Origin: Gammaproteobacteria bacterium
GTDB lineage: Bacteria; Pseudomonadota; Gammaproteobacteria; Tenderiales; Tenderiaceae
Direction: 5' to 3'
Length of the DNA stretch: 64,000 nt
Assembly: GCA_016200485.1 (NCBI GenBank)
Contig: JACQEP010000010.1
Span: 287,644-351,643, forward strand
Shown: positions 23,075-64,000 of the stretch, in pieces
Numbering within the stretch: position 1 is the first letter of the stretch
Layout of the letters: every line of letters begins with the position of its first letter
The notes under the pieces: model-generated
Database searches by the model: none
What the model was told of the DNA's origin: nothing
The model's input: only the letters and a program-made list of their open reading frames with translations
Position numbers and translations under genes: made by a program

Positions 23075-25375
23075 ATGATTAATCGCGTTTCCTCGAAACT
23101 CCTCGTTCGTGAATTATTTGTGTTTATCACCGCAGTTGTACTTAGTGCATGCGGCGGCACAGACAACAGCACTGGAACCACCAGCAATGACGAGAGCAAC
23201 GTCCTGTCTGGTAGCAATGTTAATGTCAACAATGAGAATGTGGCGACAGTTTGGAAAACCGTTGACGCCAGTTGGCAACATAGCGCAGCAATCAAGAGTG
23301 ATGGCACCTTATGGACATGGGGAGATAACGGATTTGGTGAGCTCGGGGATGGTACAAACTCCAACCGAGAAGTACCGGTGCAGATATCAGGGGCGGAATG
23401 GAAAAGTGTTGCCACAGGTAATATTCATACAATTGCGGTTAAAGGCGATGGTACCCTTTGGGCATGGGGAAATAACTTTTATGGACAACTCGGCAATGGT
23501 GCCGTGAATTATGGTGCTGGAGAGAATGCTCCAGTGCATATTGGTAATGACAATGATTGGGTCAGCGTTTCGGCAGGGTACGATTATTCTGTTGCGATAA
23601 AAGAGAACGGTACTCTCTGGGCATGGGGCAATAACATGAGAGGCCAGCTTGGAGATGATGCGACTGTAGATCATTATGTTCCGGTACAGATTGGCTCAAG
23701 CAAGAACTGGATTAGTTTAGCAGCAGGAAATCTTCATGTTGTTGCGATTAAGGCGGATGGAACCCTTTGGGCATGGGGCGACAATACGTTTGGCCAACTC
23801 GGAGACGGTACTACCGAGCAACGAAATCTGCCTATACAGGTCGGTACCGATACCGATTGGGTTACTGTCAGCGCAGGCAATTATCACACATTAGCCATTA
23901 AGCGCGATGGTACGCTCTGGGGCTGGGGAAGTAATGGTGTTGGTCAGCTTGGTGATGGTGCATCCATACAGAGACTCAGCCCCGCGCAAATCGGTCTAGA
24001 CGCTAACTGGGCTGCTGTAACAGCGGGTGCTTTTCATACAATTGCCGTAAAGAGTGATGGCACCCTTTGGGGATGGGGAGATAACTGGCGAAATCAGCTA
24101 GGTGATGGCACAACTACGCAACGGCGCAGCCCAACTCGAATTGGTGTAGACACAGACTGGTCCAGAGCTGCTGCTGGCGGCGCTCACAATATTGCACTCA
24201 AGCGTAACGGTACACTCTGGACCTGGGGCCAAAATGACTATGGCCAACTGGGCAATGGGACGAGCGTGCGAACGCAGGATCGCAGGATACCGACACGTAT
24301 CAATGACGCTATGGTGTGGAAGAAAATCGCAGCTGGTGGAGATCATACCGTCGGCATCAAGGATGACGGTACACTGTGGGCCTGGGGTGATAATACAAAT
24401 GGACAGCTTGGTGATGGCACCACTGTCTATCGAAAAAATCCAATCCAGATTGGCGGCGCGACCGATTGGACTTTTGCGACAGCAGGAACTTCATACACTT
24501 TAGCCCTCAAAAATGACGGTACGCTGTGGGCGTGGGGATATAATGGATTCGGTCAGCTTGGAGACGGCACCACCATCGATCGACATCAGCCAATACGAAT
24601 CGGCACTGCCACTAATTGGACAAGTGTAGTGGCGGGGTATAGCCATTCAGTAGCACTCAAAACTGACGGTACCCTGTGGGCTTGGGGAGACAATGCCTCG
24701 AATCAGCTTGGCATTAATACACTTACGCGTAGCAATGTTCCAATCAAGATTAGCTCAAGTATAGGCTGGCGTAGTGTAGCGGTAGGAGCCTTTCATACGG
24801 TAGCGATTAAGGCGGACGGGACTCTCTGGGCATGGGGAGGAAATTGGTATGGACAGCTCGGTGATGGTACCAATACTAATCAAAACGTCCCCGTGCAAAT
24901 CGGGACTGATCAAGACTGGAGCACTGTTGCGGCCGGAAGCGGGGATACTTTTGCAATCAAAAGTGATACCTCCCTCTGGGGCTGGGGTTATAACCAAAGC
25001 GGTCAACTTGGTGATGGATCAGTAGAAAACCGCAGTTCTCCAGTTCAGGTTCAAGCGGGCGCTGAAACTGGTTGGATTAATATAGCCATTGGTGATGATC
25101 ATTGCGTAGCAATCAAAGCTGACGGAACGCTCTGGGCTTGGGGGTATAATTTATATGGCCAACGTGGAGATGATGTGAATCTAACGGTGGACAGTACCCC
25201 ATCACGAATTAGCGATGATACACCTTGGTCAGGTGTCGCAGCTGGCGCTCAACATTCGGTTGCACTCAAAGCTGATGGAACAGTCTTTACTTGGGGAAAC
25301 AACTATTATGGCCAGCTTGGCATTGGTGTATCTGGTATAGATCAAAACAGTTTAGTGCCAATTGCTATCCCCTGA
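23075..25375 (+). CDS. RCC1-repeat (7-bladed propeller x2) lipoprotein
   Basis: About 14 tandem units of roughly 50 aa with the DGTLWAWG-N-x-GQLGDGT signature. The likely start is Met at 23075 (MINRVSS...FITAVVLSACGG, lipobox LSAC). The listed ORF start at 22988 is an in-frame upstream extension. The region is visibly AT-richer than its flanks. Confidence 0.75.
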   Translation: MINRVSSKLLVRELFVFITAVVLSACGGTDNSTGTTSNDESNVLSGSNVNVNNENVATVWKTVDASWQHSAAIKSDGTLWTWGDNGFGELGDGTNSNREVPVQISGAEWKSVATGNIHTIAVKGDGTLWAWGNNFYGQLGNGAVNYGAGENAPVHIGNDNDWVSVSAGYDYSVAIKENGTLWAWGNNMRGQLGDDATVDHYVPVQIGSSKNWISLAAGNLHVVAIKADGTLWAWGDNTFGQLGDGTTEQRNLPIQVGTDTDWVTVSAGNYHTLAIKRDGTLWGWGSNGVGQLGDGASIQRLSPAQIGLDANWAAVTAGAFHTIAVKSDGTLWGWGDNWRNQLGDGTTTQRRSPTRIGVDTDWSRAAAGGAHNIALKRNGTLWTWGQNDYGQLGNGTSVRTQDRRIPTRINDAMVWKKIAAGGDHTVGIKDDGTLWAWGDNTNGQLGDGTTVYRKNPIQIGGATDWTFATAGTSYTLALKNDGTLWAWGYNGFGQLGDGTTIDRHQPIRIGTATNWTSVVAGYSHSVALKTDGTLWAWGDNASNQLGINTLTRSNVPIKISSSIGWRSVAVGAFHTVAIKADGTLWAWGGNWYGQLGDGTNTNQNVPVQIGTDQDWSTVAAGSGDTFAIKSDTSLWGWGYNQSGQLGDGSVENRSSPVQVQAGAETGWINIAIGDDHCVAIKADGTLWAWGYNLYGQRGDDVNLTVDSTPSRISDDTPWSGVAAGAQHSVALKADGTVFTWGNNYYGQLGIGVSGIDQNSLVPIAIP

Positions 25376-49759: not shown

Positions 49760-50029
49760 ATGACTCACATGGTGCAATGCAAAAAACTGAAGCAGGAATT
49801 ACCTGGCCTGGCGCGCCCACCGTATCCCGGGGAGTTCGGCAAAAAGATCTATGAAAACATCTCGCAACAGGCGTGGCAGATGTGGTTGAAGCAGCAGACC
49901 ATGCTGATTAACGAATATCGCCTATCGTTGATCGACCCCAAGGCGCAGACCCTGCTCAAGGAAGAAATGGAGAAGTTTCTATTCGGCGACGGCGGACAGA
50001 TGCCTCAAGGTTACGTACCCCCGAAATAA
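49760..50029 (+). CDS. yggX: Fe(II)-trafficking/oxidative-damage protection protein YggX
   Basis: Aligns to E. coli YggX (…YPGEFGKKIYENISQQAWQMWLKQQTMLINEYRL…). The conserved mutY-yggX pairing is present. Confidence 0.85.
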   Translation: MTHMVQCKKLKQELPGLARPPYPGEFGKKIYENISQQAWQMWLKQQTMLINEYRLSLIDPKAQTLLKEEMEKFLFGDGGQMPQGYVPPK

Positions 50030-50030
50030 T

Positions 50031-50990
50031 TCACGACGCTGCCCCAGGTGCATCCTGGGCGCAGCGAAATCCCACATCCGTGCTTACCGCCGACGGGTCT
50101 GCCTGACCGCGGCGGGCTGCGCGGAAAAAGTAGCTGATCGCATAGTGGCCAACGCCGGCGCCACCGCCTTTAATCACTTTGTGGATGCCGCCATAGAATT
50201 CACTCTTGAAGGTCGCGCCCGGATAGGCTTCATACCAATCCGCCACCCACTCCGAGACGTTACCGCCCATATCCATCACTGAAAAGGGAGAGCGATCATC
50301 GGCAAAACTCCCCACTGGCCGTAACTCAACACCACTGTCATCATTTTCACCGGTATTAACGCGGCTTGAGTCCCAACTCTGACCCCAGGGATATTCCAGG
50401 CCATCCGTACCACGCGCAGCCTTTTCCCATTCGCCTTCACTCGGCAGTCGTTTCTTTTTCCAGCGGCAATAACTGGCAGCGTCATACCAATTCACCGCCG
50501 TCACCGGCAATGGATCGCGTTGACGTTGAATTTTTTCCAGTTCCGCCACTAAGGCATCTTTATCCAGCGCGCGCGTGTCCTGATCAAGATGAAAATACTC
50601 GCGCGCCACCCATTGCAAGGTTTCAATGCGGAAAGAACGCAACTTATCATCGCGCACGTTGTAACCATTTTGCACCCACAGCGCAGGCTCCGCCGTACCC
50701 GTGGCGTGAACAAAAGCCTTGTAGTCAGCATTCGTCACTTCCAGACGATCAATATAAAACGCCTTTAGCTCAACCTTGTGTTGCGGATGCTCGTCCAGAT
50801 ACATCGGTTGCCGAAAACCGAATTCCTCCGTCAACTTGGCCTCATCGACCCGATTACTCCCCATCACAAATTCGCCCGCCGGGATCAGCACCATGCCCTG
50901 CGGTGGCGGTGCTGGTGGCGGCGCTGACTCACACCCCGCCAATCCCAACACCAATGAGCACCACAAAATTACCTGGCGTCGCGCGCGCAT
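50031..50990 (-). CDS. formylglycine-generating-enzyme (FGE/SUMF1/EgtB/PvdO) family lipoprotein
   Basis: Lipobox LAGCES. FGE-sulfatase fold motifs (VTNADYKAF..., RLPSEGEWEKAARG, GGNVSEWV, GFRCA). Confidence 0.8.
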   Translation of the reverse strand: MRARRQVILWCSLVLGLAGCESAPPPAPPPQGMVLIPAGEFVMGSNRVDEAKLTEEFGFRQPMYLDEHPQHKVELKAFYIDRLEVTNADYKAFVHATGTAEPALWVQNGYNVRDDKLRSFRIETLQWVAREYFHLDQDTRALDKDALVAELEKIQRQRDPLPVTAVNWYDAASYCRWKKKRLPSEGEWEKAARGTDGLEYPWGQSWDSSRVNTGENDDSGVELRPVGSFADDRSPFSVMDMGGNVSEWVADWYEAYPGATFKSEFYGGIHKVIKGGGAGVGHYAISYFFRAARRGQADPSAVSTDVGFRCAQDAPGAAS

Positions 50991-52018
50991 CGAAACCCAA
51001 AGCTTTCGTTTTTGGTACGAGGATGGAAGAAACTGCGATTAAAGACCGGCGCCGAGATGCCGCATTTGTAAAATGAACAATCCCACCACGAACCACCTTT
51101 CAGGACTTTATATTTTTCACCGTAGTTTTCCGTGATCCGCTTATTACCGGGATAGGGCTGATACCAGGAGCTGGTCCACTCCCAGACATTACCGGACATA
51201 TCGTAAAGCCCATACGGACTCTTGCCCGACTCGAAGGCCCCCACCGGTGTGGTGTCGCCCTCGACCTTGAGCGCCGCCCAGCGCACCGGCGTATTGGCCC
51301 GCTCAATACTGAATTCATTGCCCCAGGTGAACATCTGCCCGTCCGTGCCGCGCGCCGCCTTCTCCCACTCCTCCTGTGTCGGCAAACGCTTGCCCGCCCA
51401 CTCGCAATAGGCCTTGGCATCATCCCAGGTCACATAGGTCACCGGATGGTCTGCCTTACCCTCAGGGTAGGTGCGATTCACAAAATGACTGGGCGACTTA
51501 TGCTGGGTGGCGTCGTTGAACTGCTTGTACTGGAGATTGGTCACCTCGAACTTATCAATATAAAAGGCAGGCAGGGTTTCTTCATGCTGCGGCCCCTCAT
51601 CAGGCAGGCGAAAATCCGTGCCCATGATGAATTTACCCGCCGGGATCAACACCATCTCATTCGGCTGGGCACCGCGCTTGGTCCCCGGATAATAGATCGG
51701 CAGACTCATCCCAGGCCCCTGTCCCTCGACCTTCTGCGTCGGCTGCTCCTTGCGTACTGCCGACTCCATCTGCGCCAGGGCAGCCTTAAAATTCGCCTTG
51801 ATACCCTTCTCGTTATGGCACTCCAGGCACTCCTTGGCCATCGCCTTCTTGAACAGCTCGGTATTGGCCTCCTGATGGCAGCCCACACAGCCATTCAGGT
51901 CCTCATGATGGAAGCGCACAATCTTTTCAGGCTGGCCAGCGGCCTCAACCCCCATTGCCAAGCTCAGCCCGGCCAATACCGCCACGATCCTCCAACCTGA
52001 CTTCCGCACCCGCCGCAT
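50969..52018 (-). CDS. dihaem cytochrome c – FGE-family fusion protein
   Basis: A signal peptide is followed by two CxxCH motifs (CVGCH, CLECH). After about 100 aa the same FGE fold motifs as the downstream paralog appear (RLPTQEEWEKAARG, GNVWEWT, GFRCARD). Confidence 0.75.
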   Translation of the reverse strand: MRRVRKSGWRIVAVLAGLSLAMGVEAAGQPEKIVRFHHEDLNGCVGCHQEANTELFKKAMAKECLECHNEKGIKANFKAALAQMESAVRKEQPTQKVEGQGPGMSLPIYYPGTKRGAQPNEMVLIPAGKFIMGTDFRLPDEGPQHEETLPAFYIDKFEVTNLQYKQFNDATQHKSPSHFVNRTYPEGKADHPVTYVTWDDAKAYCEWAGKRLPTQEEWEKAARGTDGQMFTWGNEFSIERANTPVRWAALKVEGDTTPVGAFESGKSPYGLYDMSGNVWEWTSSWYQPYPGNKRITENYGEKYKVLKGGSWWDCSFYKCGISAPVFNRSFFHPRTKNESFGFRCARDAR

Positions 52019-52141
52019 CCTTTCCTAACCAGCTTATTGTTTGTTGCAAGGGGCCAAGAGTAACAAAATCACCCTCCCTCAGAAAATCACCATATTACCT
52101 TGACCCGCGAGAGACGAATTGGTTTAATACGCCCTCTTCTT

Positions 52142-52217
52142 GCCCAAGTAGCTCAGTCGGTAGAGCAGGGGACTGAAAATCCCCGTGTCGGTGGTTCGAT
52201 TCCGCCCTTGGGCACCA
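52142..52217 (+). tRNA. tRNA-Phe (anticodon GAA)
   Basis: GCCCAAGTAGCTCAGTCGGTAGAGCAGGGGACTGAAAATCCCC...GGTTCGATTCCGCCCTTGGGCACCA; this is the canonical Phe cloverleaf. Confidence 0.9.
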
Positions 52218-52525: not shown

Positions 52526-52564
52526 ACAAAAAAAGACGAACCCCAGATGAGGATGGGGTTCGTC
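52526..52564 (-). terminator. rho-independent terminator of the 52691-64000 minus-strand gene cluster
   Basis: Hairpin gacgaaccccatcctcatctggggttcgtc followed by an 8-nt U-run on the minus strand. Confidence 0.55.
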
Positions 52565-52690
52565 TTCACGAAGACAACTCACAGACTGTAGCTAAACTAT
52601 AAGGGGTAGCCTGTTCTTTGCAAATTGCTTCGAAAACCAATAATCCTTTATTTTGAAATCCTAAACAGGCAATTAACAAAGTCAGGTCAA

Positions 52691-54397
52691 TTATTGCTTA
52701 CGCGACAATCTAAATACCATAGGCAAGCCAAACAGAAACAAGCCAAGGAAATTTAAAGCACCCCCGCCACCTGCGCCGTCACTGCCAGCCGATGCAGCAA
52801 CACTGCCACTGCTTTCAACTGCTGTCGAGGTTGTAGCGCTCGAAGTATCCGGCGAAGTGTTATTCGACTGCGTATAGAAATCCGGAATTTCATAGGTACC
52901 GACAATTGTTTTCTTGAATTCGTCACCCACAAATACCGAAGCAACGTCCATCTGCTGTTCAATCGCACCTAAATCACAGGCAGCTCCGACTCGGCCATTA
53001 CCGAGCTGATCCTGCGTCAACTTACAATCCTGACCCTGATTGATTGCCAAGCTAGTCGACTTCAATGGGAAGTGAGCATTTCCCGGAACACCACTATCGG
53101 CAAGCGTTTCAAGACCAGCGATATTGGCGCCAGTAATAATCAGCGAGCTAGTTCCCTTCAGAGATTCGACTTTACACTCCGTCAAATCACCGATCAGGTT
53201 ATTCCCTGCCACCAAAATCATGCTCGGGTAGTTGTTACTCTGTTTATACATATCAGGACTACGAAGATCCGTATCGTTAAATCCACAATCTGGACCCTTG
53301 GCCGTAGAATCATTACCTGCAATTAGATTGTTTTTGAGCGTGACGATACCCGCATCCGCGTACACGCCGCCACCGCCCTCAATGCCGGCATGATTTCCAC
53401 TCATCGTGCTGTTTTGAATGTCAATCAAACCACCACCATAGAGACTTTCGTCGCCATTCAGTCGCGGCTCAGAGCCATAAATGGCCCCTGCATGCAACAA
53501 GCCATGATTATCATTAAAGGTTGAATTGACGACTAGCAACTTACCCTTGGCGTTCTCTATTGCGCCGCCACAATATGAAGTGTTGCTAATAAATGTGCTA
53601 TCGATAACTTCCATATACCCAATGGAGTTTTCTATCGCACCACCGTCCGATTGCGTTGCCCCTACCACATTGCCGCTATCATCTTTGGTTGGTGAGGTAA
53701 AATTCTTTTGGAAAGTACTACGCTTAATACTTGCGGTACCCGCATTATTAAAAATCGCACCCCCATCGCTATCCCAATTTCTAGTAGTGTGATTGGCCCA
53801 AAAAATGCTGTCACTGACCGTGAGTTTGGCATTAGGACTATTGGCAATAGCACCTCCAGTTGCTGCTGAGTTACTAAAGAACTTGACTGATTCAACGACC
53901 AGCTCACCTTCGTTCTCAACAGCGCCTCCACCAATCTGCTTATCAACAATATTGGAATCCATATAGTAATCGAGCGAACCGCCGCTGAGATTCAGATTAC
54001 GTAGTGTCAGCTTGGCGCTGGCACCAACATGAAAAAAACGGAACTGGTTTTTGGCAGCACCATTTCGTTGCAGCAGCGTCTTATTCATACCCTGCCCTTC
54101 GATGGTTAGCTCACCTTCTATCGGAAACGCTGAGTACACATCACTGCCGATTCCATCCACATCCCCCAACACAAAGGAAGCTTCTGCCATTTTGATGACA
54201 TCCGCGACCGGAGAGGCATTCGCCTTAATCACAGCCTCCTTCAGCTCACCCACGGTAGAGACCGTGTATACCTCAGCATGTACTGACGTTGACATTACCG
54301 CCGCTATCGCAGCCGAAATAGCCGTTAAACCGATCCCTGACCTGCCCCCACGAGCAAGATAATTTAATCCACCCATTACACCCCTCCTGCCTATCAT
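52691..54397 (-). CDS. Pmp-like right-handed beta-helix repeat protein with GlyGly-CTERM-type sorting tail
   Basis: A signal peptide (…VMSTSVHAEV) is followed by repeated GGAI/FxxN beta-helix rungs (GGAIANS, GGAIFNN, GGAIENS, GGAIENA, AGAIYGS). The tail is GAGGGGALNFLGLFLFGLPMVFRLSRKQ. Confidence 0.65.
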   Translation of the reverse strand: MIGRRGVMGGLNYLARGGRSGIGLTAISAAIAAVMSTSVHAEVYTVSTVGELKEAVIKANASPVADVIKMAEASFVLGDVDGIGSDVYSAFPIEGELTIEGQGMNKTLLQRNGAAKNQFRFFHVGASAKLTLRNLNLSGGSLDYYMDSNIVDKQIGGGAVENEGELVVESVKFFSNSAATGGAIANSPNAKLTVSDSIFWANHTTRNWDSDGGAIFNNAGTASIKRSTFQKNFTSPTKDDSGNVVGATQSDGGAIENSIGYMEVIDSTFISNTSYCGGAIENAKGKLLVVNSTFNDNHGLLHAGAIYGSEPRLNGDESLYGGGLIDIQNSTMSGNHAGIEGGGGVYADAGIVTLKNNLIAGNDSTAKGPDCGFNDTDLRSPDMYKQSNNYPSMILVAGNNLIGDLTECKVESLKGTSSLIITGANIAGLETLADSGVPGNAHFPLKSTSLAINQGQDCKLTQDQLGNGRVGAACDLGAIEQQMDVASVFVGDEFKKTIVGTYEIPDFYTQSNNTSPDTSSATTSTAVESSGSVAASAGSDGAGGGGALNFLGLFLFGLPMVFRLSRKQ

Positions 54398-54437
54398 TTT
54401 GAGTTATTGGCCTGCTTTTATAAACACATGCCCACGG

Positions 54438-54755
54438 CTAAAACGCCAGAATCATCTCAATTCGCTTGGTCAGTGCATTGACGTGAAAAATGCCAAACTG
54501 ATTCACGGCCGCATCATCCCTTGGAATCAACAAAATTCCATCGCCACTTTTATTTTCGCTATCTGAGCCATCTCTGGTCCCGAAGTTAACGCTCGGAATT
54601 ATTGGCGCCTCGATTACCTGCGCTCTTGGGTCACTTATAGTATTTATTGAGTACTCCTTGGCCTGCACCGGCATTTCCAGCGCAAACACCCCCACAACTG
54701 TTATGACTGGCAAAACCAGCCATAATTTGGCCTTGCGGCCAAAACACCCCCCCAT
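54438..54755 (-). CDS. hypothetical small secreted protein
   Basis: 105 aa with a signal peptide (MGGCFGRKAKLWLVLPVITVVGVFALEMPVQA) and no recognisable domain. It is spaced tightly between neighbouring cluster genes. Confidence 0.4.
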   Translation of the reverse strand: MGGCFGRKAKLWLVLPVITVVGVFALEMPVQAKEYSINTISDPRAQVIEAPIIPSVNFGTRDGSDSENKSGDGILLIPRDDAAVNQFGIFHVNALTKRIEMILAF

Positions 54756-54835
54756 ACATACCCCCTCATCTTGATCTATTTCGTAATTAAGCCTCTAACG
54801 GGCCATTTTTATCTTTATAATTTATTAATGGTTGC

Positions 54836-55675
54836 TTATTCGCCTGATGAAGCCTGCACAAAATTCGGCATCCCCTTCTCTAATACTCGCTTACTGAAAA
54901 TATTATCCCGCACGCCGACATTAACCTGAACGTCTGTCATGTCGTATACCGCCGACACCTGGCTATTCGATTTCTTTACAACGACGGTACGCCAAACCCA
55001 GGCATCATCGACCTTTTCCCACTTAATGAACTGTTCCTTGCTAACCTGGTTGGTCTTGTCATAATAATCAACACGCCTTTCAAGGCAGGTATCCCAGTCG
55101 CCAGTCTTGCTAAACCAACTCACGCGCTTGCTATAGGTCGGATCGTTCTCTCGCGGCGTACTTTCTACTAAATAAAAGTCTCGCCCCTCATGATTTTTCA
55201 CACCAAGGTATGTGTGGATGTCTTCAGCCAGACCACGCACCCGCAAATCTTCATCGTTGACACCCCAATCCATGTTTTTGGGATCACGCTGCGACACGCG
55301 ACGCACCATGTGCGTTTCCGGAAGATAAACCCACTGATCCGCTGCCTTCCCGCTGCTTTGTGTGTAGGCCCAGCGCATGAAATTAATGCCGCGATTATGG
55401 GGTGGAAACTCAGAGAAAAGAACGGTTTTATCGGTGACATCACCGACATCGCCGTCGTAACTTTTCCAAAAGCGGAAAAATTCATGATTGACACGCTTAC
55501 CTTGCTCATCGGTCAAGGTTACTTTCAGCCGCGAACGCTGATCCTCACCCGCGTATTTGTAATAACAGTGTTTGACAATCTCGTCGCCAGTCAATTCCTC
55601 GGCATGAGACACGACCATACATCCGAGCGCGACCAACGCCGCACATCCGGTTCTAGCTATCGCGTTAATACGCAT
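54836..55675 (-). CDS. LolA-like 'outer-membrane lipoprotein-sorting protein' family (PF17131-like) periplasmic protein
   Basis: A signal peptide precedes motifs recalled for this family: WVYLPETHMVRRVSQRD and a following acidic segment. Confidence 0.5.
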   Translation of the reverse strand: MRINAIARTGCAALVALGCMVVSHAEELTGDEIVKHCYYKYAGEDQRSRLKVTLTDEQGKRVNHEFFRFWKSYDGDVGDVTDKTVLFSEFPPHNRGINFMRWAYTQSSGKAADQWVYLPETHMVRRVSQRDPKNMDWGVNDEDLRVRGLAEDIHTYLGVKNHEGRDFYLVESTPRENDPTYSKRVSWFSKTGDWDTCLERRVDYYDKTNQVSKEQFIKWEKVDDAWVWRTVVVKKSNSQVSAVYDMTDVQVNVGVRDNIFSKRVLEKGMPNFVQASSGE

Positions 55676-55909
55676 ATGATTTCCTCATCTCTTCGCCACC
55701 TTCTGCGAGGTGCGCGTTTTTCCACGCTTACATTATTTTTATAATTATTTTTTTATTTGCATGTCCGCCGCAAAAATGAATCATCTGGTTGTCGGATTTT
55801 CTCAGTATATAGAAACTGATGGGGCCAAAAGATGACTAAAATATGACCAAATGGTCATCTTATGCCGCTTTGTACGCTTACAGGGATTCCCGACCAATCA
55901 CTATTCACT

Positions 55910-57013
55910 TCAAGGTGTTAGGTCCAGAACCGCCTCATCAATTCGAACCGGGGCGTAGTCCTTGGGTGACAACTGGCGCAACAGTTTCTCGGGAACGATC
56001 TGGTACTCCAGCCAGACACGCACTCTCACGGCCCTGGCCATCACTGGCGCGAGCAATTCTTCGCGCCGCTCACCTGGTCGCAAGGTGGTATCAATTATCT
56101 TGTCCAGAGCCCGCATCCCGCCCTCCGAGGCAAGATAGTCATAACGATATACCCGCTCCTCTGCGGCCAGCACCGCCCCGGCAGCGTCTAGAAACTCAGC
56201 CTTCAGCATCAGCTTATTGGGATGAGCACCGCCCGTTGGAAAATGATGCCCCACCGCTTGATTGATAACCGTCACCACAATCTTGCCGGCGACTTGTTTA
56301 AGCTCTAATTTGGCCGCTCCTTTGAGCAATGGAGAATCCGCGTGTCCGCCGGGAAAACGATGAGATGCGTGTTGAGACTGAGCCGAACTGCTACTTGGCG
56401 CACCGTCGATCTTTGGCATATGGCAATCAGCGCATTGCACACTCTGTTCGGCGTATTGACTACCGCGCCACTCTTCATAAGTACGCTCCAACGCAACGCC
56501 ATTAGGCGCGATATCGCGATGACAACCTGCACACAAACTGGAATCAAGAAAGTGATCCCCCTGTTTAGTGAGATGTGGTGCGAACGAATTCTCGCGGCCA
56601 GGACCATAGATGATATTTCGCGAATCGTAACTCAGTTCATGACCATATTGCCCTTCGCGCACTTTGCGTACCGCATGACAGGTGAGACAAGTCACGCCAT
56701 CTTGGCGCTGCGGGCCAGCGCCAACATTAATTTCAGGCGCATGACATCGCTGACAAGCGCGGGGATCTAACGGGGGGTTATTGGTCGCCGTTGCATATTT
56801 CGCCGCCTGACTTTGCCAACGCTTAAAATGGGCCTGGAAATTAGGATTGCTATTGGCGCGTGCCATCCAGGACGTTTGCCATTCTTGATAGATTTGCAAA
56901 TGACAAGCGCTGCAATCGCTACTCTCCGTTACTGCAGTGGCACGCGCCAAAGAGGTCACGAACATTGCCATCAAACCTAGCAACCACGCGCCGCGAACGA
57001 AATAATTGGACAT
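55910..57013 (-). CDS. secreted pentahaem c-type cytochrome
   Basis: A signal peptide and five CxxCH motifs (CSACH, CQRCH, CLTCH, CAGCH, CADCH). The final ~130 aa carry no haem motif. Confidence 0.8.
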   Translation of the reverse strand: MSNYFVRGAWLLGLMAMFVTSLARATAVTESSDCSACHLQIYQEWQTSWMARANSNPNFQAHFKRWQSQAAKYATATNNPPLDPRACQRCHAPEINVGAGPQRQDGVTCLTCHAVRKVREGQYGHELSYDSRNIIYGPGRENSFAPHLTKQGDHFLDSSLCAGCHRDIAPNGVALERTYEEWRGSQYAEQSVQCADCHMPKIDGAPSSSSAQSQHASHRFPGGHADSPLLKGAAKLELKQVAGKIVVTVINQAVGHHFPTGGAHPNKLMLKAEFLDAAGAVLAAEERVYRYDYLASEGGMRALDKIIDTTLRPGERREELLAPVMARAVRVRVWLEYQIVPEKLLRQLSPKDYAPVRIDEAVLDLTP

Positions 57014-57016
57014 TAT

Positions 57017-58846
57017 TTAGTGGTGGCGCCGCCGCGCCATATTCCAGAGCAATAGGCCAGCAGATAACCAAAATTCGGCACCGCCGCCGCCTGCGGCAGA
57101 TTCTGGCGCATTAGTGGAGCTCACCTTATTCGTATTATCTACTTGCCCGCTCTTGTCAGATGGCACAACATTTCCTTGTGACGAAGTAGGGTCCGGGGTA
57201 ACACTGGAACCTGGATTAGGAGTACCGAAAATGCTCTCAAAGGCTCCTCCATTACCGGCAGTGTAGTTAGTAATTTTTTTCTCATCATCCGAAATTGCAA
57301 CCGGGCACACCTGACCAGACGTCACAGTCACATCGTAATATTCAACAGCACCGATTGAACATCGCTGGCTCCGCGATTTTCCCAATTGATCTTTGATTAT
57401 ACAGGTGGCGATATTACCCGCCCCATAAACAGCACTATTAACCGTTTCTATCGGCAGATGCGCACTACCATTGGCCGCAAACGAACGGCAACTCGCCAAC
57501 CCAGGCTTTACCGCCAGCAGATCTGAATTAACCGTCAACATGTGTGGCTGACATACAGAAAACTCCCCCAGCAAGTTGTTACCCAAGGATGTTATCCCGA
57601 TATCGGTATTATAATTGGACAACGCGGTGAAACACTCGCGCCCCTTCGGATCGCTATTACCTGAGATCACGGAATTTTTTAGCTCAACAAATCCCCATAG
57701 CATCGCCAATCCACCACCACCCAGCCCCATGCCACTATTGGGATCGACAAGCACGCCTTCGGAAACATTTCCGCTGACAGTGACATTATTTAGCTTCATC
57801 TGGGATAGTGCAGGATTACTGTATTCCTCACTCGAGTTTGACGCAATAATGCCCCCGCCTTGCCCCATAGTATAGTTACCATAGATCGTTGTATTACTGA
57901 CATTCAAGTTTCCAATGCCGTTGCCTATCCCCCCGCCGCCGAGACGGGAAAAATTGCCAACAAAGCTACTGTCATCAATATCCGCATTCCCTTTTTCATT
58001 AAAGACACCCGCTCCCTGTCCGCCGGTGATATTGGCAGAGAACGTTGAACGGCGGACGATTAATCGTCCTAGAATAGCGGGCATTATTGCCGTGGCACGG
58101 TGTTGTTTATAATGCGCATCGTTATAAATTCCTGCGCCATCGATGGCATAACGCGTCCGGTTATTAGTGATAAGGCTATCTTCAACTTCGACGTATCCGC
58201 CGTCATTGCGAATCGCGCCGCCACAGTTTTCAGATTTATTATCGCGCAATATGCTATTACGCACGAATAATTGGCCTCGAATCTCCGGGCCATTCTCGAC
58301 TTGTCGGATGCCAAGCACATAAACACCGCCACCCGTATCCATCGGGTGATCGTTATTGATACAGCGATCATCGCACGTTGTTGAACCCCCGCGGAGTGTT
58401 AAGCGCTCTAACGTCAGTTTTCCAACAGGCGCCACATGCATAATTCTGAATTTAGGCACACCGGCTGTAGCATCATCCCGTTGAATTATTGTCTGCGCCG
58501 GACCATCTCCCAATCCGCGCAGCGTGACATCTCCGGTAATGGCAGGCAGTGCGTTATCACCCTCGACATGATCTGTAGCCTGAATAAAGGTATAGATACC
58601 TGCTTCAATCTCGATCACCGCGGGCTCGCCCGCCGCATTCGCCGCATTGACAGCATCGATTAACTGCTGCTCTGGCGTTTTAGGATTTGCCAGCACTGGC
58701 ACATGAAATAACGCCGCCGCCTCTACACCACAGGAAAATTGCAGGCACAGCATTGCCACTGATATCACTGATTTTATTTTTGCCGAAGCAGAAATCTCAC
58801 ACTGGCGGTTGCCTTTAAAACTATCCCACTGACAAAACATAGACAT
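57017..58846 (-). CDS. Pmp-like beta-helix repeat protein with GlyGly-CTERM-type sorting tail (paralog of 52691-54397)
   Basis: Repeated GGxI/N-x-S/T rungs (GGAIRND, GAGIYND, GAGVFNE, GGGIGNG, GGGIIAS). The tail is AAGGGGAEFWLSAGLLLWNMARRRHH. The start is set at Met 58846 with a GAGGT RBS; the listed ORF extends to 58885. Confidence 0.65.
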   Translation of the reverse strand: MSMFCQWDSFKGNRQCEISASAKIKSVISVAMLCLQFSCGVEAAALFHVPVLANPKTPEQQLIDAVNAANAAGEPAVIEIEAGIYTFIQATDHVEGDNALPAITGDVTLRGLGDGPAQTIIQRDDATAGVPKFRIMHVAPVGKLTLERLTLRGGSTTCDDRCINNDHPMDTGGGVYVLGIRQVENGPEIRGQLFVRNSILRDNKSENCGGAIRNDGGYVEVEDSLITNNRTRYAIDGAGIYNDAHYKQHRATAIMPAILGRLIVRRSTFSANITGGQGAGVFNEKGNADIDDSSFVGNFSRLGGGGIGNGIGNLNVSNTTIYGNYTMGQGGGIIASNSSEEYSNPALSQMKLNNVTVSGNVSEGVLVDPNSGMGLGGGGLAMLWGFVELKNSVISGNSDPKGRECFTALSNYNTDIGITSLGNNLLGEFSVCQPHMLTVNSDLLAVKPGLASCRSFAANGSAHLPIETVNSAVYGAGNIATCIIKDQLGKSRSQRCSIGAVEYYDVTVTSGQVCPVAISDDEKKITNYTAGNGGAFESIFGTPNPGSSVTPDPTSSQGNVVPSDKSGQVDNTNKVSSTNAPESAAGGGGAEFWLSAGLLLWNMARRRHH

Positions 58847-58853
58847 TACCTCG

Positions 58854-59594
58854 TTAGCGCTTGAGCGGCGGTTGCCGCAGAGCATTCTCGACTTCCTGTC
58901 GTCGTTGTTGTCGAAGCCGGTAGCGTTCCGGGTCTGATTCGCGCAGTTCTAGATCTTCTTTTTCTATTTCTTTAAGTGTCTGCTGAAATTCCAGCTCATC
59001 TTCTTTGCGATCCTGTGCATGACCACGTCGACGTTCTTCGAGTTTTTTGCGTTGCGCTTGGGCACTATCGAGCACATATTGGCGTTGAGCCGAGGGAAGA
59101 TTTTGGAGTCGCAGATTCCAGCGCTCATGCAGGCGAGTTCCCTGTTGCGCAACGCCGGCCTGATTCATGGTGCGGATTACTGCTTCCTGTTCCAGCGACA
59201 TCACTGGCACCAGTGCCGAGGTATCGCTTTTACCTGATGGCAACAAACGAGCACCAATCAGCAGCGACTTGGAATTTGGTTTCTTGCTTGAATATTGATA
59301 AATCGTGTTTAAACCACGGGTAATACGCCGGATACCTTCTTCCAGGGATTCATCTTTGAAATTGGCGCTTACAGTTCGATCGACCGCTGGATCTATCATG
59401 ACTTCAATTCCGGAAACGAACGCAATTCGTGTCATGATTGTCTTCAGTGCAACATCCTGCGCCTGAATGCTCAGCCTGTCCTGCTTGAGATCATAGCGAA
59501 TTTGTGGATTTTGCACTGAAACGGCAGCACTGAGTACGCCGCTCCAAAGCAGGACCCCCACGGCATACAATCTGGATATTGAGCTGATTTTCAT
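58854..59594 (-). CDS. secreted protein with STN-like N-domain and charged coiled-coil tail
   Basis: Signal peptide. The N-domain (DLKQDRLSIQAQDVALKTIMTRIAFVSGIEVMIDPAVDRTVSANFKD) resembles secretin/TonB STN domains. The C-terminal ~80 aa are rich in R/E/Q and predicted coiled coil. Confidence 0.45.
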   Translation of the reverse strand: MKISSISRLYAVGVLLWSGVLSAAVSVQNPQIRYDLKQDRLSIQAQDVALKTIMTRIAFVSGIEVMIDPAVDRTVSANFKDESLEEGIRRITRGLNTIYQYSSKKPNSKSLLIGARLLPSGKSDTSALVPVMSLEQEAVIRTMNQAGVAQQGTRLHERWNLRLQNLPSAQRQYVLDSAQAQRKKLEERRRGHAQDRKEDELEFQQTLKEIEKEDLELRESDPERYRLRQQRRQEVENALRQPPLKR

Positions 59595-59689
59595 GGCTTA
59601 TTTAACGTGACAGCGCGAAGGATCAGAAGCAATATAATATTGCTCAGTTCCTTCGCGCCGCTATGTCTCTGCCTTAGCTTATGCCGATG

Positions 59690-62185
59690 TTACTTACAAA
59701 CACCTGCACTGCAAACACCACCCACCGCGACACCCCCGCTTGCGCCGACACTTTGGCCAGTACCACCGGTATAGCCAAATGTGGTTTGGCTGCTGGCGGT
59801 AACTTTGGCAGAACCTGCCAAGCTATAAAGATCGATCAAACCACCGCGACCACCGGCTGAACCCGCGACTGCGGGATTGGCATTACCACCCTTAGCGTTA
59901 ATGACAGCTGCTCCGTTATCCACCAACTTTGGACTCACGATAGTTACCAGCGCCGCCGCATCACCGCCACGGTTACGGCCGTTACCACCATTAGCACTGA
60001 TATTAACAGTATTATAGGCATCACCCAACTCAGTCAGTAGTGAGACATTACCGGCATTACCACCACGACCGCTATTTGCGCCATTGTCATCGGCGCCGTT
60101 GGCAACGATTGCATTATTGTTGCTTACCTGATTATAACCCCAGAGCAACACCGATCCTGCATTAGCGGCAACGGTATCAGTGATCGCAAGTCCGTTGCTA
60201 ACACCACCGCTGGTATCGATTGCACCCTTGTTCACGGTATATTCCATCGTCGGAATACTTGGACCAAGAATCGGATAGAACACGACGTCAAACATGCCGC
60301 AGTAATATTCAGTTTCCAGCGTTACATCACCACCAACACCGCCTTTGGCAGGAATATTGGCTGCATTAGCAAGCACGCTGCCACCCTTGGCAATGATTTT
60401 TGCATCATTGCGCACGTCACCGCCTGGCGTCAGGAACTGGGCTGCCGTGTTGCCGAACTGCGTCATCATGCCGACATCACCTGCATTACCGCCGTGATTA
60501 CCATCACCACCACTCACATTAATTTCGCGATACCCCAGCAAGGACAAATGCTGGTCAAGAGAGTGTAAGCGCGCATCAAGCGCAATCTTGACGAAGCCGC
60601 CATCACCGCCATTACCACGCCCTGCTGCTGCAGCATGACCGCCGGAGGCATTAATATTCCCGGAGAGCTCAATATGCCCCACAGTCTGCCAAGCACGGGT
60701 AATATGGCCATAATAGGCACTGATCGTAACGTCACCGCCGTAACCAGCGCTGGAACTCAAGCCGCCAGTAGACCCCCCGACCGCAATCAGATCACCACTG
60801 TTGGCCAATGCCACTTGCATCACCATATTGCCGTCGCGAACACCGCCACCGTAATCTTTCAGCGTAATATCGCCAGCATCACCACCTTGGCCGCCATCGG
60901 TATTACCGCCAGAGGTGATGATCTTACCGCTATTCTTAAGCGTGCCCACCTGAACCGTTTTAATGGTGACGTCGCCACCATCACCACCGGCCTGAGTACC
61001 TTTGCCGCCATTGGTGGTGATGTTGCCGGAATTCAATAGGTCACCGACCGTGGCCAGCAGTTTCACTGCACCGCCTACGCCACCCGTGCCGCTATTGCTA
61101 TCACCGCCGGAGGCAATGATATCGCCGCGATTTTCGATACGGCTCTGCGCCTCTAATCGGACATTGCCGCCATTCTTGCCAGCAAGACTAGACGTCTTGA
61201 TGGTGCTAGCGCTCAGAATCGAGAAATCGGTAACAATATCGGCACTGCCTGCCTCGCTCTTACTGTTGTTTCCGGCAAGATCGATCACACTGCCAACATC
61301 ACCGAAATAATCAGCTGCGATAATCTGCAACCCACCACGCCGGTTACTTGCATCAAACGTAGTTACAGTGCCTTGATTTTGAAAATCGTTGATCAGAATT
61401 ATGTTGGCGTACACACCCGCATCGATACCGCCACGATTCAACCCCAACGTCAGGGTAGTGCCAGGCTTGACCTGGATGCCGGTCACCGGTGGTTCGTCTG
61501 CAATAGTGGCATTGCCATCAGAAATATAAACGTAGTTATTACCGAGCACCATATAGGCAACACCATTAGCTGGTGCCGAGTTGACCACCGGAATCGTACT
61601 ATTTTGACTGATGATTAGTGGATTTGATCCGAGATTAGCATTAGTGGTATTGGTCGCCGTAAACGTCGTCACGGCTTTAGTAAAATTACCATTTAGATCC
61701 GGCGCCACAACTTTCAGCCCACCCATACCACCGGGCTGGAAGATATCGACGCAACCGCCATTCCCTCCGTGACCACCATTGGCACCGCCACGTCCGCCAC
61801 TGGTCGCGATGTAATAACCGGTCTGATTCCAAGATTTTTCGTTGGCATCCAATACCCCACCCGCATCGGCACTAATGTAGGTATCGGAACTCAACCCGCC
61901 CGAACAAGTGGTTGCCGCTTCCGCTCTATCGCGCGACACATTACTGAAGCCGTTATTTTCAGGACCGGGGTTGGCATTCGGATCGATGCTATTCGCAGTG
62001 TTAGAACTGTTAGCATTAGAACCACTTGGCGACGTAACCGTGGTGTTGCTCGGCGTTGCTGCGTCTTCACCGCCGCCGCAGGCAGCCAGCAACACACTGC
62101 TCGTAATTATTACCGCCAATGGCAGTAACTGAAAACTGCGAACGGAACGCAAACCACCTTTATCACCCAATACGAACATACTCAT
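59690..62185 (-). CDS. 831-aa glycine-rich tandem-repeat lipoprotein (putative surface beta-roll/beta-helix protein)
   Basis: Lipobox LLAACGG. At least 10 units of ~30 aa of the form SG-x-I-x3-GG-x5-GG-x-GGDV-T-I/L (GGKGTQAGGDGGDVTIK, GGNTDGGQGGDAGDITLK, GGDGNHGGNAGDVGMM, and others). Confidence 0.6.
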   Translation of the reverse strand: MSMFVLGDKGGLRSVRSFQLLPLAVIITSSVLLAACGGGEDAATPSNTTVTSPSGSNANSSNTANSIDPNANPGPENNGFSNVSRDRAEAATTCSGGLSSDTYISADAGGVLDANEKSWNQTGYYIATSGGRGGANGGHGGNGGCVDIFQPGGMGGLKVVAPDLNGNFTKAVTTFTATNTTNANLGSNPLIISQNSTIPVVNSAPANGVAYMVLGNNYVYISDGNATIADEPPVTGIQVKPGTTLTLGLNRGGIDAGVYANIILINDFQNQGTVTTFDASNRRGGLQIIAADYFGDVGSVIDLAGNNSKSEAGSADIVTDFSILSASTIKTSSLAGKNGGNVRLEAQSRIENRGDIIASGGDSNSGTGGVGGAVKLLATVGDLLNSGNITTNGGKGTQAGGDGGDVTIKTVQVGTLKNSGKIITSGGNTDGGQGGDAGDITLKDYGGGVRDGNMVMQVALANSGDLIAVGGSTGGLSSSAGYGGDVTISAYYGHITRAWQTVGHIELSGNINASGGHAAAAGRGNGGDGGFVKIALDARLHSLDQHLSLLGYREINVSGGDGNHGGNAGDVGMMTQFGNTAAQFLTPGGDVRNDAKIIAKGGSVLANAANIPAKGGVGGDVTLETEYYCGMFDVVFYPILGPSIPTMEYTVNKGAIDTSGGVSNGLAITDTVAANAGSVLLWGYNQVSNNNAIVANGADDNGANSGRGGNAGNVSLLTELGDAYNTVNISANGGNGRNRGGDAAALVTIVSPKLVDNGAAVINAKGGNANPAVAGSAGGRGGLIDLYSLAGSAKVTASSQTTFGYTGGTGQSVGASGGVAVGGVCSAGVCK

Positions 62186-62250
62186 TTCTCCTTCATACCC
62201 GTATCAGATCCCCGTGAGGATCCGTTATTTTATAATGATTTTAGTATTTT

Positions 62251-64000
62251 TTATTTTTTGGTCGTTGTTGCAAATGGCCATACAGGCTTAGTGCCAAATA
62301 TGGTATTCCATGAATTTGGACCTGGCCCGCCATCACGATTAGCAGAACGGTTGGGTGCCGAAGTGTCGTTCACACGATCATAGGCTTGATAGTAAAAACG
62401 AGGTTGCGACTCTCCAGGACCATTAAAGACCTGGCCAAACCAGGTAACTTTAATATCGTCTCCCGCAACCCATCCTAGACTTCCACCACCATCTTTAGAA
62501 GATGTTGATGTGCCACCGGAAGTCAGCATGTCGCCCGCAATCTCACGCCGCACGAACATCCCTTGATCGGTACGTGACGAGAAACCAGTGCTCGACGCAC
62601 CACGTCTACCGAGGTTATAAGTTCCCACCTGCGTCTGATCAATATCCATCCAGAAACCGGTACGGTCGTTGTTTGCATCCAGATTCGCCTTATAGGCAAA
62701 ATCATTCTTGAACTCGAAGTACTCGCTCGCTATCTTGGTGGCGAAATGCTGCTCCAGATCGATATTCGGCTGGGTAGCACTATCACCCCAACCGGTACGC
62801 ACCACTGCGCGATCGGCAAAGCCAAACATACTATTGCCCACATCTCGCAACAGCATCTGGCTAATAATGCCATTCTTGGTTGCGTTACCCATTTGCACCA
62901 GTGACTCACTTGCAAAGGCAAGATTGGCCGGTGTGCCCGTGGCATTACTATCGGTAATGATCAATTGGATATAGTCTTTGCCATCGCTACCCCTCAGCAT
63001 GCGTTGTAACATCCCTTCGCTACTCTGAGAACTAATACAGACACCTGCTCCGGGAGGACAAGCCGCAGAGATCACACCATTGCTAACACTCCAATTACTA
63101 AATTGAACTGGCGTGTCTGTTACCGTAGAAGACGACAAAGTAACGGGGGCCGCCTGGAACTGAACATCGGCCAAGGTCGATGGAGCAGGAGTTGTTGTGC
63201 CCTTACTATCCTTGGACGACCCTGCCCCGGTTGTCCCCTTGGGCAATGCCGGCATGACGGGCGCGGCGCCGAACGTCGCGGTATTCCAGTCCAAAGGCGC
63301 GGAGCTGCCATAGGCCATATACCGTGATGGTGCCTGCCCACTACTCAAATTTTCATAAGCCTGAAAGCTCATCTCCAGATCTTCCCAACCCGGCGTCCCT
63401 TCATTGCTTTCCAGCTCTTCCCAGTGATTCATTACCTGACCGGCCCAGGTCACAGCCACCGTTTCACCGGCATTCCAGGTCACGCTGCGGCCGGAAGGCA
63501 GAGTACCAGTACCCGCACTCTTGGACATATCACCGCTGCGCAAGCGGCGGGTGAAGCCTTGAACCTCATAGGGAGTGGTCGTGGAAGAACATTTGTCGCA
63601 CTTGCCGACACTTTGATCCTTACCCCATTGCTGACTGAATAACTGGCCAATATCGTAGGCATAGCCGGAACGGACGCCCAGCTCGCTGATATTTTCCTCA
63701 AATTTATACGTCGACAGAAACTTGGTATCAAAAGCAGTGCCCGACTCACTAATAGATTGATTCGTCACGATGCTCGGTGAGGTTGTATCAGTGCTCCACT
63801 TGGTCTTGATCGTGGAATCCATCGACAATGCCGAATTGGTTTTATCCCATTTATTGACAGAATCATCTTTAATGACTTGATGATTAGCGATGCCCCCTAG
63901 CGGGCCAGACGTGTTGTCCGGATTACGGCGTACGAAATTCTCAGTGGAAAAATTCAGCGCGCCAGGAAGCCCGCTGGCTCCAGTCTCGATAATGATGGTC
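62251..64000 (-). CDS. large Ser/Thr-rich protein, 5' end beyond window (partial)
   Basis: The frame stays open upstream of the listed TTG/Met start through the window end (…TIIIETGASGLPGALNFSTENFVRRNPDNTSGPLGGIANHQVIKDDSVNKWDKTNSALSMDSTIK…). No domain is recognised. Confidence 0.5.
   Translation of the reverse strand, partial: TIIIETGASGLPGALNFSTENFVRRNPDNTSGPLGGIANHQVIKDDSVNKWDKTNSALSMDSTIKTKWSTDTTSPSIVTNQSISESGTAFDTKFLSTYKFEENISELGVRSGYAYDIGQLFSQQWGKDQSVGKCDKCSSTTTPYEVQGFTRRLRSGDMSKSAGTGTLPSGRSVTWNAGETVAVTWAGQVMNHWEELESNEGTPGWEDLEMSFQAYENLSSGQAPSRYMAYGSSAPLDWNTATFGAAPVMPALPKGTTGAGSSKDSKGTTTPAPSTLADVQFQAAPVTLSSSTVTDTPVQFSNWSVSNGVISAACPPGAGVCISSQSSEGMLQRMLRGSDGKDYIQLIITDSNATGTPANLAFASESLVQMGNATKNGIISQMLLRDVGNSMFGFADRAVVRTGWGDSATQPNIDLEQHFATKIASEYFEFKNDFAYKANLDANNDRTGFWMDIDQTQVGTYNLGRRGASSTGFSSRTDQGMFVRREIAGDMLTSGGTSTSSKDGGGSLGWVAGDDIKVTWFGQVFNGPGESQPRFYYQAYDRVNDTSAPNRSANRDGGPGPNSWNTIFGTKPVWPFATTTKK

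Follow-up and report, generated by a model that had tools for sequence, protein, structure and literature searches.

The stretch of DNA analysed here (the window) comprises 64,000 nucleotides of contig JACQEP010000010.1 from a gammaproteobacterium of the Tenderiaceae (assembly GCA_016200485.1). It contains two neighbouring genes, designated A and B, whose products share the fold of the formylglycine-generating enzyme (FGE). As judged from the list of open reading frames and from Pfam, gene A (50969..52018, minus strand) encodes a 349-aa protein in which a putative dihaem c-type cytochrome is joined to an FGE-fold domain, and gene B (50031..50990, minus strand) encodes an FGE-fold lipoprotein paralogue of 319 aa that lacks the cysteine pair. 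An earlier note, made from the sequence without database searches, had placed tandem FGE-family paralogues at 50031-52018, and this was borne out by matches to PF03781 (FGE-sulfatase) in both A (217.7 bits against a cut-off of 23.3, E 2.7e-64) and B (residues 31-311, 189 bits against the same cut-off, E 1.6e-55). Across the FGE domain the two proteins are 36% identical (E 1e-49). The coordinates of the reading frames show that the end of A and the start of B overlap by 22 nt (50969..50990, minus strand), an arrangement that would be consistent with translational coupling; in Ca. Tenderia electrophaga the two genes are separated by 2 nt. A putative ribosome-binding site, AGGAAAGG, lies directly upstream of the ATG of A (52019-52026, minus strand).

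The elements of A are arranged in the order signal peptide, CVGCH, CLECH, a poorly conserved linker and the PF03781 domain. The Sec signal peptide that the earlier note had described is readily discerned in the sequence (aa 1-26, MRRVRKSGWRIVAVLAGLSLAMGVEA, followed by AGQP; 51941..52018, minus strand), where inspection by eye shows an n-region that is basic, then a hydrophobic core, and VEA as the cleavage motif. Both haem c motifs named in that note, CVGCH (aa 44-48; 51875..51889, minus strand) and CLECH (aa 64-68; 51815..51829, minus strand), are situated well downstream of the 26-residue signal peptide, and neither falls within the part predicted to be cleaved. Their conservation was examined in two sets of sequences: 120 cluster representatives, listed at 57-88% identity to A from a search space of 5.8 billion proteins, and a set of distant members drawn from Nitrospirota, Thermodesulfobacteriota and Deltaproteobacteria metagenome-assembled genomes (MAGs) together with 50%-identity representatives. 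In the first motif C47 and H48 show no variation, and C44 almost none, down to members at 42-50% identity; the second is invariant in close and distant members alike. Exactly two CxxCH motifs were found in 119 of the 120 A-type representatives, and in 97 of those 119 they are spaced 20 residues apart. Of the residues considered as possible axial ligands, H38 and M104 hardly vary within the close A family but do vary in distant members. In one distant member (P0304), CLLKCH, a CxxxCH motif at residues 44-49, replaces the first CxxCH.

The cytochrome models of Pfam all scored below their gathering thresholds with A. The best of them, Cytochrom_c3_2, reached 21.2 bits (cut-off 25), followed by Cytochrome_C7 at 17.5 bits (24.8) and Paired_CXXCH_1 at 15.3 bits (20.6). 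The check with cytochrome hidden Markov models proposed in the earlier note was negative; the motif pair itself is almost universal in the family. The haem module is too short and divergent for the curated cytochrome models and, since those models matched only below threshold, the haem assignment rests on the CxxCH motifs and their conservation, from which A is predicted to carry two covalently bound haems.

The FGE-fold domain of A, as delimited by Pfam (aa 120-346; 50981..51661, minus strand), is approximately 41 residues shorter than that of human FGE. Among sequences in the PDB, the best match of A is to SUMF2 (E 7.6e-37), and FGE itself is matched with an E value of 7e-33. An AlphaFold 2 (AF2) model based on a 146-row alignment reached a predicted local distance difference test score (pLDDT) of 85.7, with values above 90 over most of the FGE domain; the Cys loop described below and the haem module stay uncertain in that model, and a run on 31 close homologues gave a pLDDT of 54 and was unusable. 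Foldseek matched A to FGE-fold structures with E values of 1e-20 to 1e-15, FGE being found at 30-33% identity (E ~1e-18).

For residue-level comparison, A was aligned with residues 89-374 of human FGE, identical to PDB 1Y1E, by HMMER, MAFFT and hhalign. Human residue numbers exceed those of the T. curvata enzyme (tcFGE) by 71 in the N-terminal half, as in W228/W299, and by 67 in the C-terminal part, as in S266/S333, and these offsets were used to relate the two. All three methods equate S310 of A with human S333 and tcFGE S266, W279 (the Trp of GNxWEW) with human W299 and tcFGE W228, R328 with human R349, and C205/C344 with the human C218-C365 disulfide pair. Human E130 aligns with E158 of A; a candidate equivalence of E130 with E141 proved wrong, and one of R182 with tcFGE W84 was dropped, MAFFT and hhalign disagreeing at that position. 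S310 is invariant in the 31-sequence alignment and nearly so among distant members. W279 is likewise invariant in the 31 sequences, and four divergent members carry Phe or Tyr there. Mutation of S266 in tcFGE cuts kcat 50- to 270-fold (PMC5324649, PMC6676471). As far as alignment can tell, therefore, A keeps the Ser (S310) and Trp (W279) of the FGE O2 pocket.

Family alignments define an active-site loop in A, GGSWWDCSFYKCGISAP (aa 308-324; 51047..51097, minus strand), which contains S310 together with two invariant cysteines, C314 and C319. The pattern GGS[WFY][WFY]DC..Y.CG[ILV]S is present in 115 of the 120 A-type representatives listed, and C314, C319 and both CxxCH motifs are invariant in the 31-sequence alignment. 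A has eight cysteines; because four lie in the haem motifs and C205/C344 match the disulfide, C314 and C319 are the only two otherwise unaccounted for. The earlier note had made its proposal depend on a catalytic cysteine pair in these proteins, and a conserved cysteine pair is found in A and not in B. What the alignments firmly support is an invariant C-x4-C beside a conserved Ser and Trp; homology of the two cysteines to the copper ligands of FGE appears ambiguous in register.

The elements by which FGE reads the CxPxR motif of sulfatases are altered in A. Approximately 41 residues of the human segment 149-200, including W179 and W180, are missing from A in the HMMER, MAFFT and hhalign alignments. 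By the offset of 71, these two tryptophans would correspond to W108/W109 of tcFGE, of which W109 (with F86) contacts the substrate Pro3 and both hydrogen-bond the active-site water (PMC6676471). Residue K336 of A (51011..51013, minus strand) occupies the position of human S357 and tcFGE S290, gapless in the three alignments, and Lys or Arg is found there in 112 of 119 A-family representatives. S290 hydrogen-bonds the substrate Arg of CxPxR (PMC6676471), and an engineered S290K change lowers kcat/KM 440-fold (PMC5324649). Measured against the groove set that reads CxPxR (tcFGE W84, F86, W108/W109 and S290), A is deficient in the W179/W180 segment and in S290, which is replaced by K336. The basic residue at the S290 position is, on present alignments, the strongest evidence against the reading of CxPxR by A and, because the Pro- and Arg-binding elements are either missing or have given way to a conserved basic residue, the client of A is probably not a CxPxR sulfatase.

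The genomic surroundings are in agreement. Neither the window nor any of 22 related loci, 346 kb in all, contains PROSITE sulfatase signature 1, and no sulfatase, nirK or copper-oxidase domains were present in the gene tables of the A loci; PF00884 was also absent from those tables, in a scan that covered loci, not whole genomes. The co-occurrence check suggested in the earlier note accordingly returned neither sulfatases nor nirK, and its contention that A is not a classical sulfatase maturase gains support from the sulfatase-free context, the loss of the W179/W180 segment and the K/R at the S290 position. These results bear on the alternative that A is a classical aerobic FGE moved to the periplasm, which would act on CxPxR sulfatases encoded elsewhere in the genome with a cytochrome as its reductant and B as a SUMF2-like modulator. 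The fold, the Ser, the Trp and the C-x4-C are all present in A, HMMER places C314/C319 on human C336/C341, and the sources label the family 'formylglycine-generating enzyme'. Even so, we regard this alternative as very unlikely in view of the deleted tryptophan segment, the Lys/Arg whose engineered counterpart is so costly to tcFGE, and the absence of sulfatases from the window and the 22 loci. Moreover, the carriers are MAGs of chemolithoautotroph type, and characterized bacterial FGEs are not known to carry a signal peptide.

B, too, is exported in all likelihood, and the earlier note was right in taking it for a lipoprotein: its N-terminus, MRARRQVILWCSLVLGLAGC, includes the lipobox motif LAGC (aa 17-20; 50931..50942, minus strand), with Glu following the Cys. 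The Tenderia orthologue has LLGC, and a crude regular expression detected a lipobox-like motif in 76 of 120 B-family representatives. A B-specific helical insertion of ~55 aa, evident from the alignments (aa 100-157; 50520..50693, minus strand), takes the place of the segment deleted in A. The FGE signature quoted in the earlier note for both proteins holds for A but not for B, which reads RLPSEGEWEKAARG and GNVSEWV at the corresponding positions. In B the active-site Ser is replaced by Gly and the Trp by Ser (GNVSEW), and the cysteine pair is lacking, the loop reading GVGHYAIS. GHY stands in place of the Cys loop in all 120 B-family representatives listed, none of which contains CxxCH or C-x4-C. 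From these replacements, B is probably a non-catalytic, membrane-anchored partner. A protein from an NCBI Gammaproteobacteria MAG (P0121) is 100% identical to B; the best collection entry for A is only 88% identical, and A may be uncalled or called differently there.

The composition of B invites a reading in which neither protein is an enzyme and the pair has a binding or scaffold role, as do the PorK/GldK/GldJ ring lipoproteins or Tsi3, a type VI secretion system (T6SS) immunity protein. On this view C314-C319 would have the role of a structural disulfide, and that of the haems would lie in sensing or stability. Many FGE-fold proteins are indeed non-enzymatic (PorK/GldK structures; Tsi3, bioRxiv 10.1101/2021.05.21.445229), and to the lipoprotein without catalytic residues may be added the inactive SUMF2 as best PDB sequence match of A and the ambiguous Cys register. 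Such a role is nevertheless doubtful for a protein that retains the catalytic Ser and Trp, that shows very high conservation of its FGE domain (57-88% identity) and whose two covalent haem sites, as motifs, are invariant across phyla. In addition, the GldK score, 99 bits, falls short of the cut-off of 350, and no genes of the type IX secretion system (T9SS) or of T6SS were found near any locus.

The architecture of A is kept, mostly near full length, at 57-88% identity in more than 120 protein clusters, and the two haem motifs and the loop are still recognizable at ~40-50% identity in other phyla. With clustering at 90% identity, A and B each account for more than 120 clusters. As judged by sequence, the conservation of the architecture far exceeds chance. 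Carriers of A belong to the Gamma- and Betaproteobacteria, Thermodesulfobacteriota and Nitrospirota, and are mostly uncultured lineages of chemolithotroph type (Tenderia relatives, Gallionellaceae, Chromatiales, Nitrospirota and Thermodesulfobacteriota); no cultured host appears among the cluster member names. A scan of contigs yielded, among the matches listed, mostly generic EWEKAARG FGE domains without the Cys loop, for example in Nitrospira.

Among 14 distinct loci whose A is at least 49% identical, 12 have a B-type gene directly 3′ of A; of the remaining two, one has a B-type gene 1.7 kb away and one has none. An extra tandem FGE-fold paralogue, either a third or a different second one, follows A at several loci (L006 8078-9178, L011 8283-9020, L014 7926-8867, L018 6129-6812 and L021 6963-7586). 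A locus in a Nitrospirae MAG (L017 5857-7516) encodes a 273-aa A-like protein with CSGYHC and no haem motifs, then a B-like lipoprotein without the helical insertion. To judge from this haem-less pair, the pairing of A with B is probably older than the cytochrome fusion.

Presence of the dihaem module was compared with that of the Cys loop in the 150 best 50%-identity representatives. Eight have both, three the loop only, one the haem module only and 138 neither (Fisher p 2.8e-10, uncorrected for shared ancestry); two of the three loop-only sequences are fragments, and the haem-only sequence is a garbled family member. Apart from B, the only other recurrent neighbour of A is a class I monohaem cytochrome c (5-6 of 18 loci). 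In L016, L018 and L021 its gene is immediately upstream of A in the same orientation; in L008 and L010 it adjoins A divergently, and in L012 the distance is 2.5 kb. All other neighbours are unrelated between loci. Both the adjacent cytochromes and the module-loop association lend support to the redox coupling that the earlier note had suggested. In P0320 (612 aa) a dihaem-FGE protein carries a UbiA prenyltransferase at its N-terminus, and a UbiA gene (L018 2277-3131, Thermodesulfobacteriota) is found two genes upstream of A; the link may reflect a quinone connection or a gene-calling artefact.

In one locus (L009) a CopD gene is situated upstream of A, an observation compatible with a role in copper handling. 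The C-x4-C would bind Cu(I) as a periplasmic chaperone, a buffer, a cuprous oxidase or a loader of cuproenzymes, a function sometimes guessed for NirV, and the haems would hold or alter the redox state of the copper. The Cys pair of FGE binds Cu(I) in chaperone-like fashion with a dissociation constant (KD) of ~1e-17 M (PMC5324649), periplasmic cupredoxins and cbb3 oxidases are abundant in the carriers (bioRxiv 10.1101/2022.05.06.490989), and the canonical peptide-binding elements are lost in A. We consider this role improbable, however: nirK, multicopper oxidases and the cop operon are not consistently linked at the loci, the Ser and Trp that A keeps act in O2 activation rather than metal binding (PMC6676471), and copper handling offers no reason for a Cys-less FGE partner.

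Taken together, the data lead us to favour, tentatively and with somewhat less than even confidence, the view that A is a periplasmic, cytochrome-coupled redox oxidase of the FGE fold, with B as its non-catalytic partner and a client that is not a sulfatase. The pair would constitute a self-contained, co-translated periplasmic module. A would be exported by Sec and then receive its two covalently attached haems; its Cys loop would form an FGE-type thiolate redox site, probably with Cu(I), and the haems would connect this site to the periplasmic cytochrome c pool. In FGE, the substrate provides two electrons and an auxiliary reductant two more, the chemistry at the Cys-pair site being that of Cu(I) and O2 (PMC5324649, PMC12123546); the physiological electron donor is still unidentified (PMC12123546). 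In A, the haems would supply the two auxiliary electrons of such O2 chemistry, one each, and the thiol substrate the other two. With regard to the earlier proposal of an O2-dependent site holding copper or non-haem iron, A would, on the favoured reading, depend on O2 and bind copper. B, anchored in the membrane and itself non-catalytic, may position or present the client, or regulate A, much as SUMF2 stands to SUMF1.

A more specific proposal, conceivable and in our estimation unlikely, is that A and B form a hitherto unrecognized periplasmic system of post-translational modification, in which a copper-thiolate oxidase, hard-wired through its haems to the respiratory cytochrome c pool, converts cysteines of client proteins presented by B. 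The products would be formylglycine or derived from a thioaldehyde, and the clients would be non-sulfatase proteins whose motif would be acidic rather than Arg-containing, because Lys or Arg replaces the Arg-binding Ser.

Several observations weigh against the favoured reading of A as a cytochrome-coupled oxidase. The weak point is the register of the loop: C314/C319 correspond to human C336/C341, the Cu(I)-binding pair that is C269/C274 in tcFGE, in the HMMER alignment and to C341/C346 in those of MAFFT and hhalign, which follow the pattern C-x2-Y-x-C and leave human C336 in a gap. (Human C235 aligns with A222 of A, so that A has no partner for a disulfide of the C346 type.) The loop of A is also two residues longer than that of FGE, its length being that of SUMF2; it is the sole part of the FGE domain with an AF2 pLDDT below 50; and the Arg found after the second Cys in tcFGE (R276) is absent from A. 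C314 and C319 could just form a disulfide in the oxidizing periplasm. Foldseek cannot separate FGE from CalU17, ToxD, SUMF2 and EgtB, which share the fold without being FGEs, and the best PDB sequence match is to an inactive paralogue. Furthermore, unfused, haem-less A-like proteins with the Cys loop exist (that of L017, and P0307), and the haems are thus not obligatory for the Cys-loop clade. Finally, some carriers are Thermodesulfobacteriota or Deltaproteobacteria MAGs and may be anaerobes, for which O2 chemistry is less obvious.

The last point is favourable to a reversal of the electron flow. In that case the Cys loop would withdraw two electrons from a thiol or peptidyl-cysteine, and the haems would export these to the cytochrome c pool without O2, making A an O2-independent, cytochrome-linked counterpart of FGE or of PvdO, itself a periplasmic FGE-fold protein named as a dihydropyoverdine dehydrogenase. 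Two one-electron haems would suit a two-electron oxidation, and the class I cytochromes that adjoin A would suit it as well. Nonetheless, no FGE-fold enzyme is known that hands electrons to a cytochrome, the known chemistry of Cys-pair FGEs is that of Cu(I) and O2 (PMC5324649, PMC12123546), and the weak matches of the haem domain are to low-potential multihaem families (c3, c7 and NrfH), as would be appropriate to electron donation and not to acceptance. With a PvdO equivalog score that is also far below its cut-off (64 bits against 500), a dehydrogenase appears rather unlikely, and the cytochrome-coupled oxidase remains the reading favoured here.

The position of the pair in the genome was compared with that in Ca. 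Tenderia electrophaga. The tRNA-Phe(GAA) gene (52142..52217, plus strand) marks the boundary between a conserved core and a variable island. On its core side, window and Tenderia share the order tRNA-Phe, A, B, yggX, mutY, asmA and then tRNA-Gly(CCC); A corresponds to Tel_00080 (75% identical) and B to Tel_00085, and Tenderia has one extra gene, Tel_00090, between B and yggX that is missing from the window. Beyond tRNA-Phe the gene content of the two differs, and in the window the GC content there is lower, at 0.47-0.48 against 0.53-0.56. On the basis of synteny and GC content, therefore, A and B (with yggX, mutY and asmA) are assigned to the conserved core, and their membership of the island is rejected. 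The earlier note had placed the pair just before tRNA-Phe and a redox-rich island; the tRNA is where it was said to be, but the link with the island is positional only.

Both Tenderia orthologues are transcribed in a biocathode metatranscriptome, at 7.98 (Tel_00080) and 7.51 (Tel_00085) log counts per million (logCPM), a level similar to that of their housekeeping neighbours, and neither responds to electrode potential (false discovery rate 0.85 and 0.44, respectively; PMC5371394 Table S3). A 'serine threonine protein kinase' mentioned in a Tenderiales preprint (ALP51736) was a false lead, A being ALP51663.

The stop codons of yggX (plus strand) and B (minus strand) converge one base apart (50029-50031), leaving no space for a terminator on either side. 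The low-GC island beyond tRNA-Phe extends over 52691-63828 (minus strand), where Tenderia carries other genes. Between it and tRNA-Phe sits a strong terminator-like hairpin of 14 pairs with a T run (52532-52567, minus strand), which follows the island gene at 52691-54397. The island encodes a 568-aa surface protein with matches to Chlam_PMP and choice-of-anchor Q and weak ones to rhombotarget A, its C-terminus being Gly-rich, hydrophobic and basic; a LolA-like protein (54836-55675); a multihaem cytochrome (55910-57013) with a sub-threshold ExtKL match; and four large open reading frames (57017-63828) without a Pfam match. Elsewhere in the window (22988-25375, plus strand), a 795-aa protein consists almost wholly of RCC1 repeats (PF00415, 14 stretches).

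Searches of the literature returned no description of a cytochrome c-FGE fusion or of the A/B pair; a Chloroflexi preprint that mentions FGE-sulfatase and CxxCH was unrelated. The fold family is already known and, as far as the sequences indicate, what is new is the architecture, the active-site loop and the paralogue partner. The database labels of the family, 'formylglycine-generating enzyme family' and 'SUMF1/EgtB/PvdO family nonheme iron enzyme', are probably both wrong for A and B where they imply sulfatase modification or a non-haem iron enzyme. As a mononuclear Cu(I) oxidase FGE is unusual, and it is widely used to install aldehyde tags; an FGE-fold protein with a built-in dihaem relay would offer a direct handle on the electron supply of such sites, and A might serve as a reductant-free biocatalyst. 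The pair thus bears on the question of what reduces FGE in vivo, to which the modification-system reading, if true, would be a natural answer; if the client is not a sulfatase, A and B may mark an unknown periplasmic cysteine modification. The module is, moreover, common in poorly understood lineages, and it is transcribed constitutively in the biocathode community.

The pair may be compared with several known systems. PvdO, PorK/GldK/GldJ, NirV and Tsi3 are exported FGE-fold proteins, several of them lipoproteins, and most, like B, are without the FGE cysteines; none has haem c, unlike A. Scores with the PvdO equivalog model were 64 and 56 bits (cut-off 500), and with that of GldK 99 and 71 bits (cut-off 350), and no pyoverdine, T9SS, nirK or T6SS genes were found near the A/B loci. 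EgtB, OvoA, SenA and OvsA have in common with A and B an FGE-like domain, which in these enzymes is C-terminal, and they provide the top NCBIfam matches (116 and 108 bits). Those enzymes, however, depend on a non-haem iron centre and on a DinB-type domain at the N-terminus. Since neither A nor B gave a DinB match in Pfam, and both fall well short of the equivalog cut-offs of 360-420 bits, assignment to the EgtB/OvoA type was rejected, and the non-haem-iron option of the earlier note is unlikely. The supply of electrons to lytic polysaccharide monooxygenase (LPMO) by cellobiose dehydrogenase, through its cytochrome domain, follows the same logic as that proposed for A, a mononuclear copper site that activates O2 and depends on outside electrons being fed by a haem domain; the folds are unrelated and the haem is b-type and on a separate protein, which makes this an analogy only. 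A parallel between FGE, polysaccharide monooxygenases (PMO) and peptidylglycine α-hydroxylating monooxygenase (PHM) has been drawn (PMC5324649).

Aerobic FGE (EC 1.8.3.7, SUMF1; human, S. coelicolor, M. tuberculosis and T. curvata) is closer. It shares with A the PF03781 fold, the Ser and Trp, the Arg that is R328 in A and R349 in the human enzyme, the disulfide equivalent to C205/C344 and a C-x4-C after the Ser of GGS. In comparison with it, A adds a signal peptide and a dihaem module, is without the ~41 residues that include W179/W180, has a loop two residues longer and of ambiguous register with no Arg after the second Cys, carries Lys or Arg for the Arg-binding Ser, lacks a sulfatase context and has a Cys-less paralogue nearby. 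SUMF2 (pFGE; PDB 1Y4J) aligns with A without gaps through the active-site loop, and resembles B in lacking the cysteine pair. It differs from B as a eukaryotic protein of the endoplasmic reticulum that is not a lipoprotein and has no haem partner, and B has in addition its helical insertion of ~55 aa. SUMF1 and SUMF2 interact, and their combination of an active protein with a Cys-less paralogue is mirrored by A and B: as would be expected of a SUMF2-like partner, B is a Cys-less protein of the FGE fold that is coupled to a Cys-bearing paralogue in 12 of the 14 loci.

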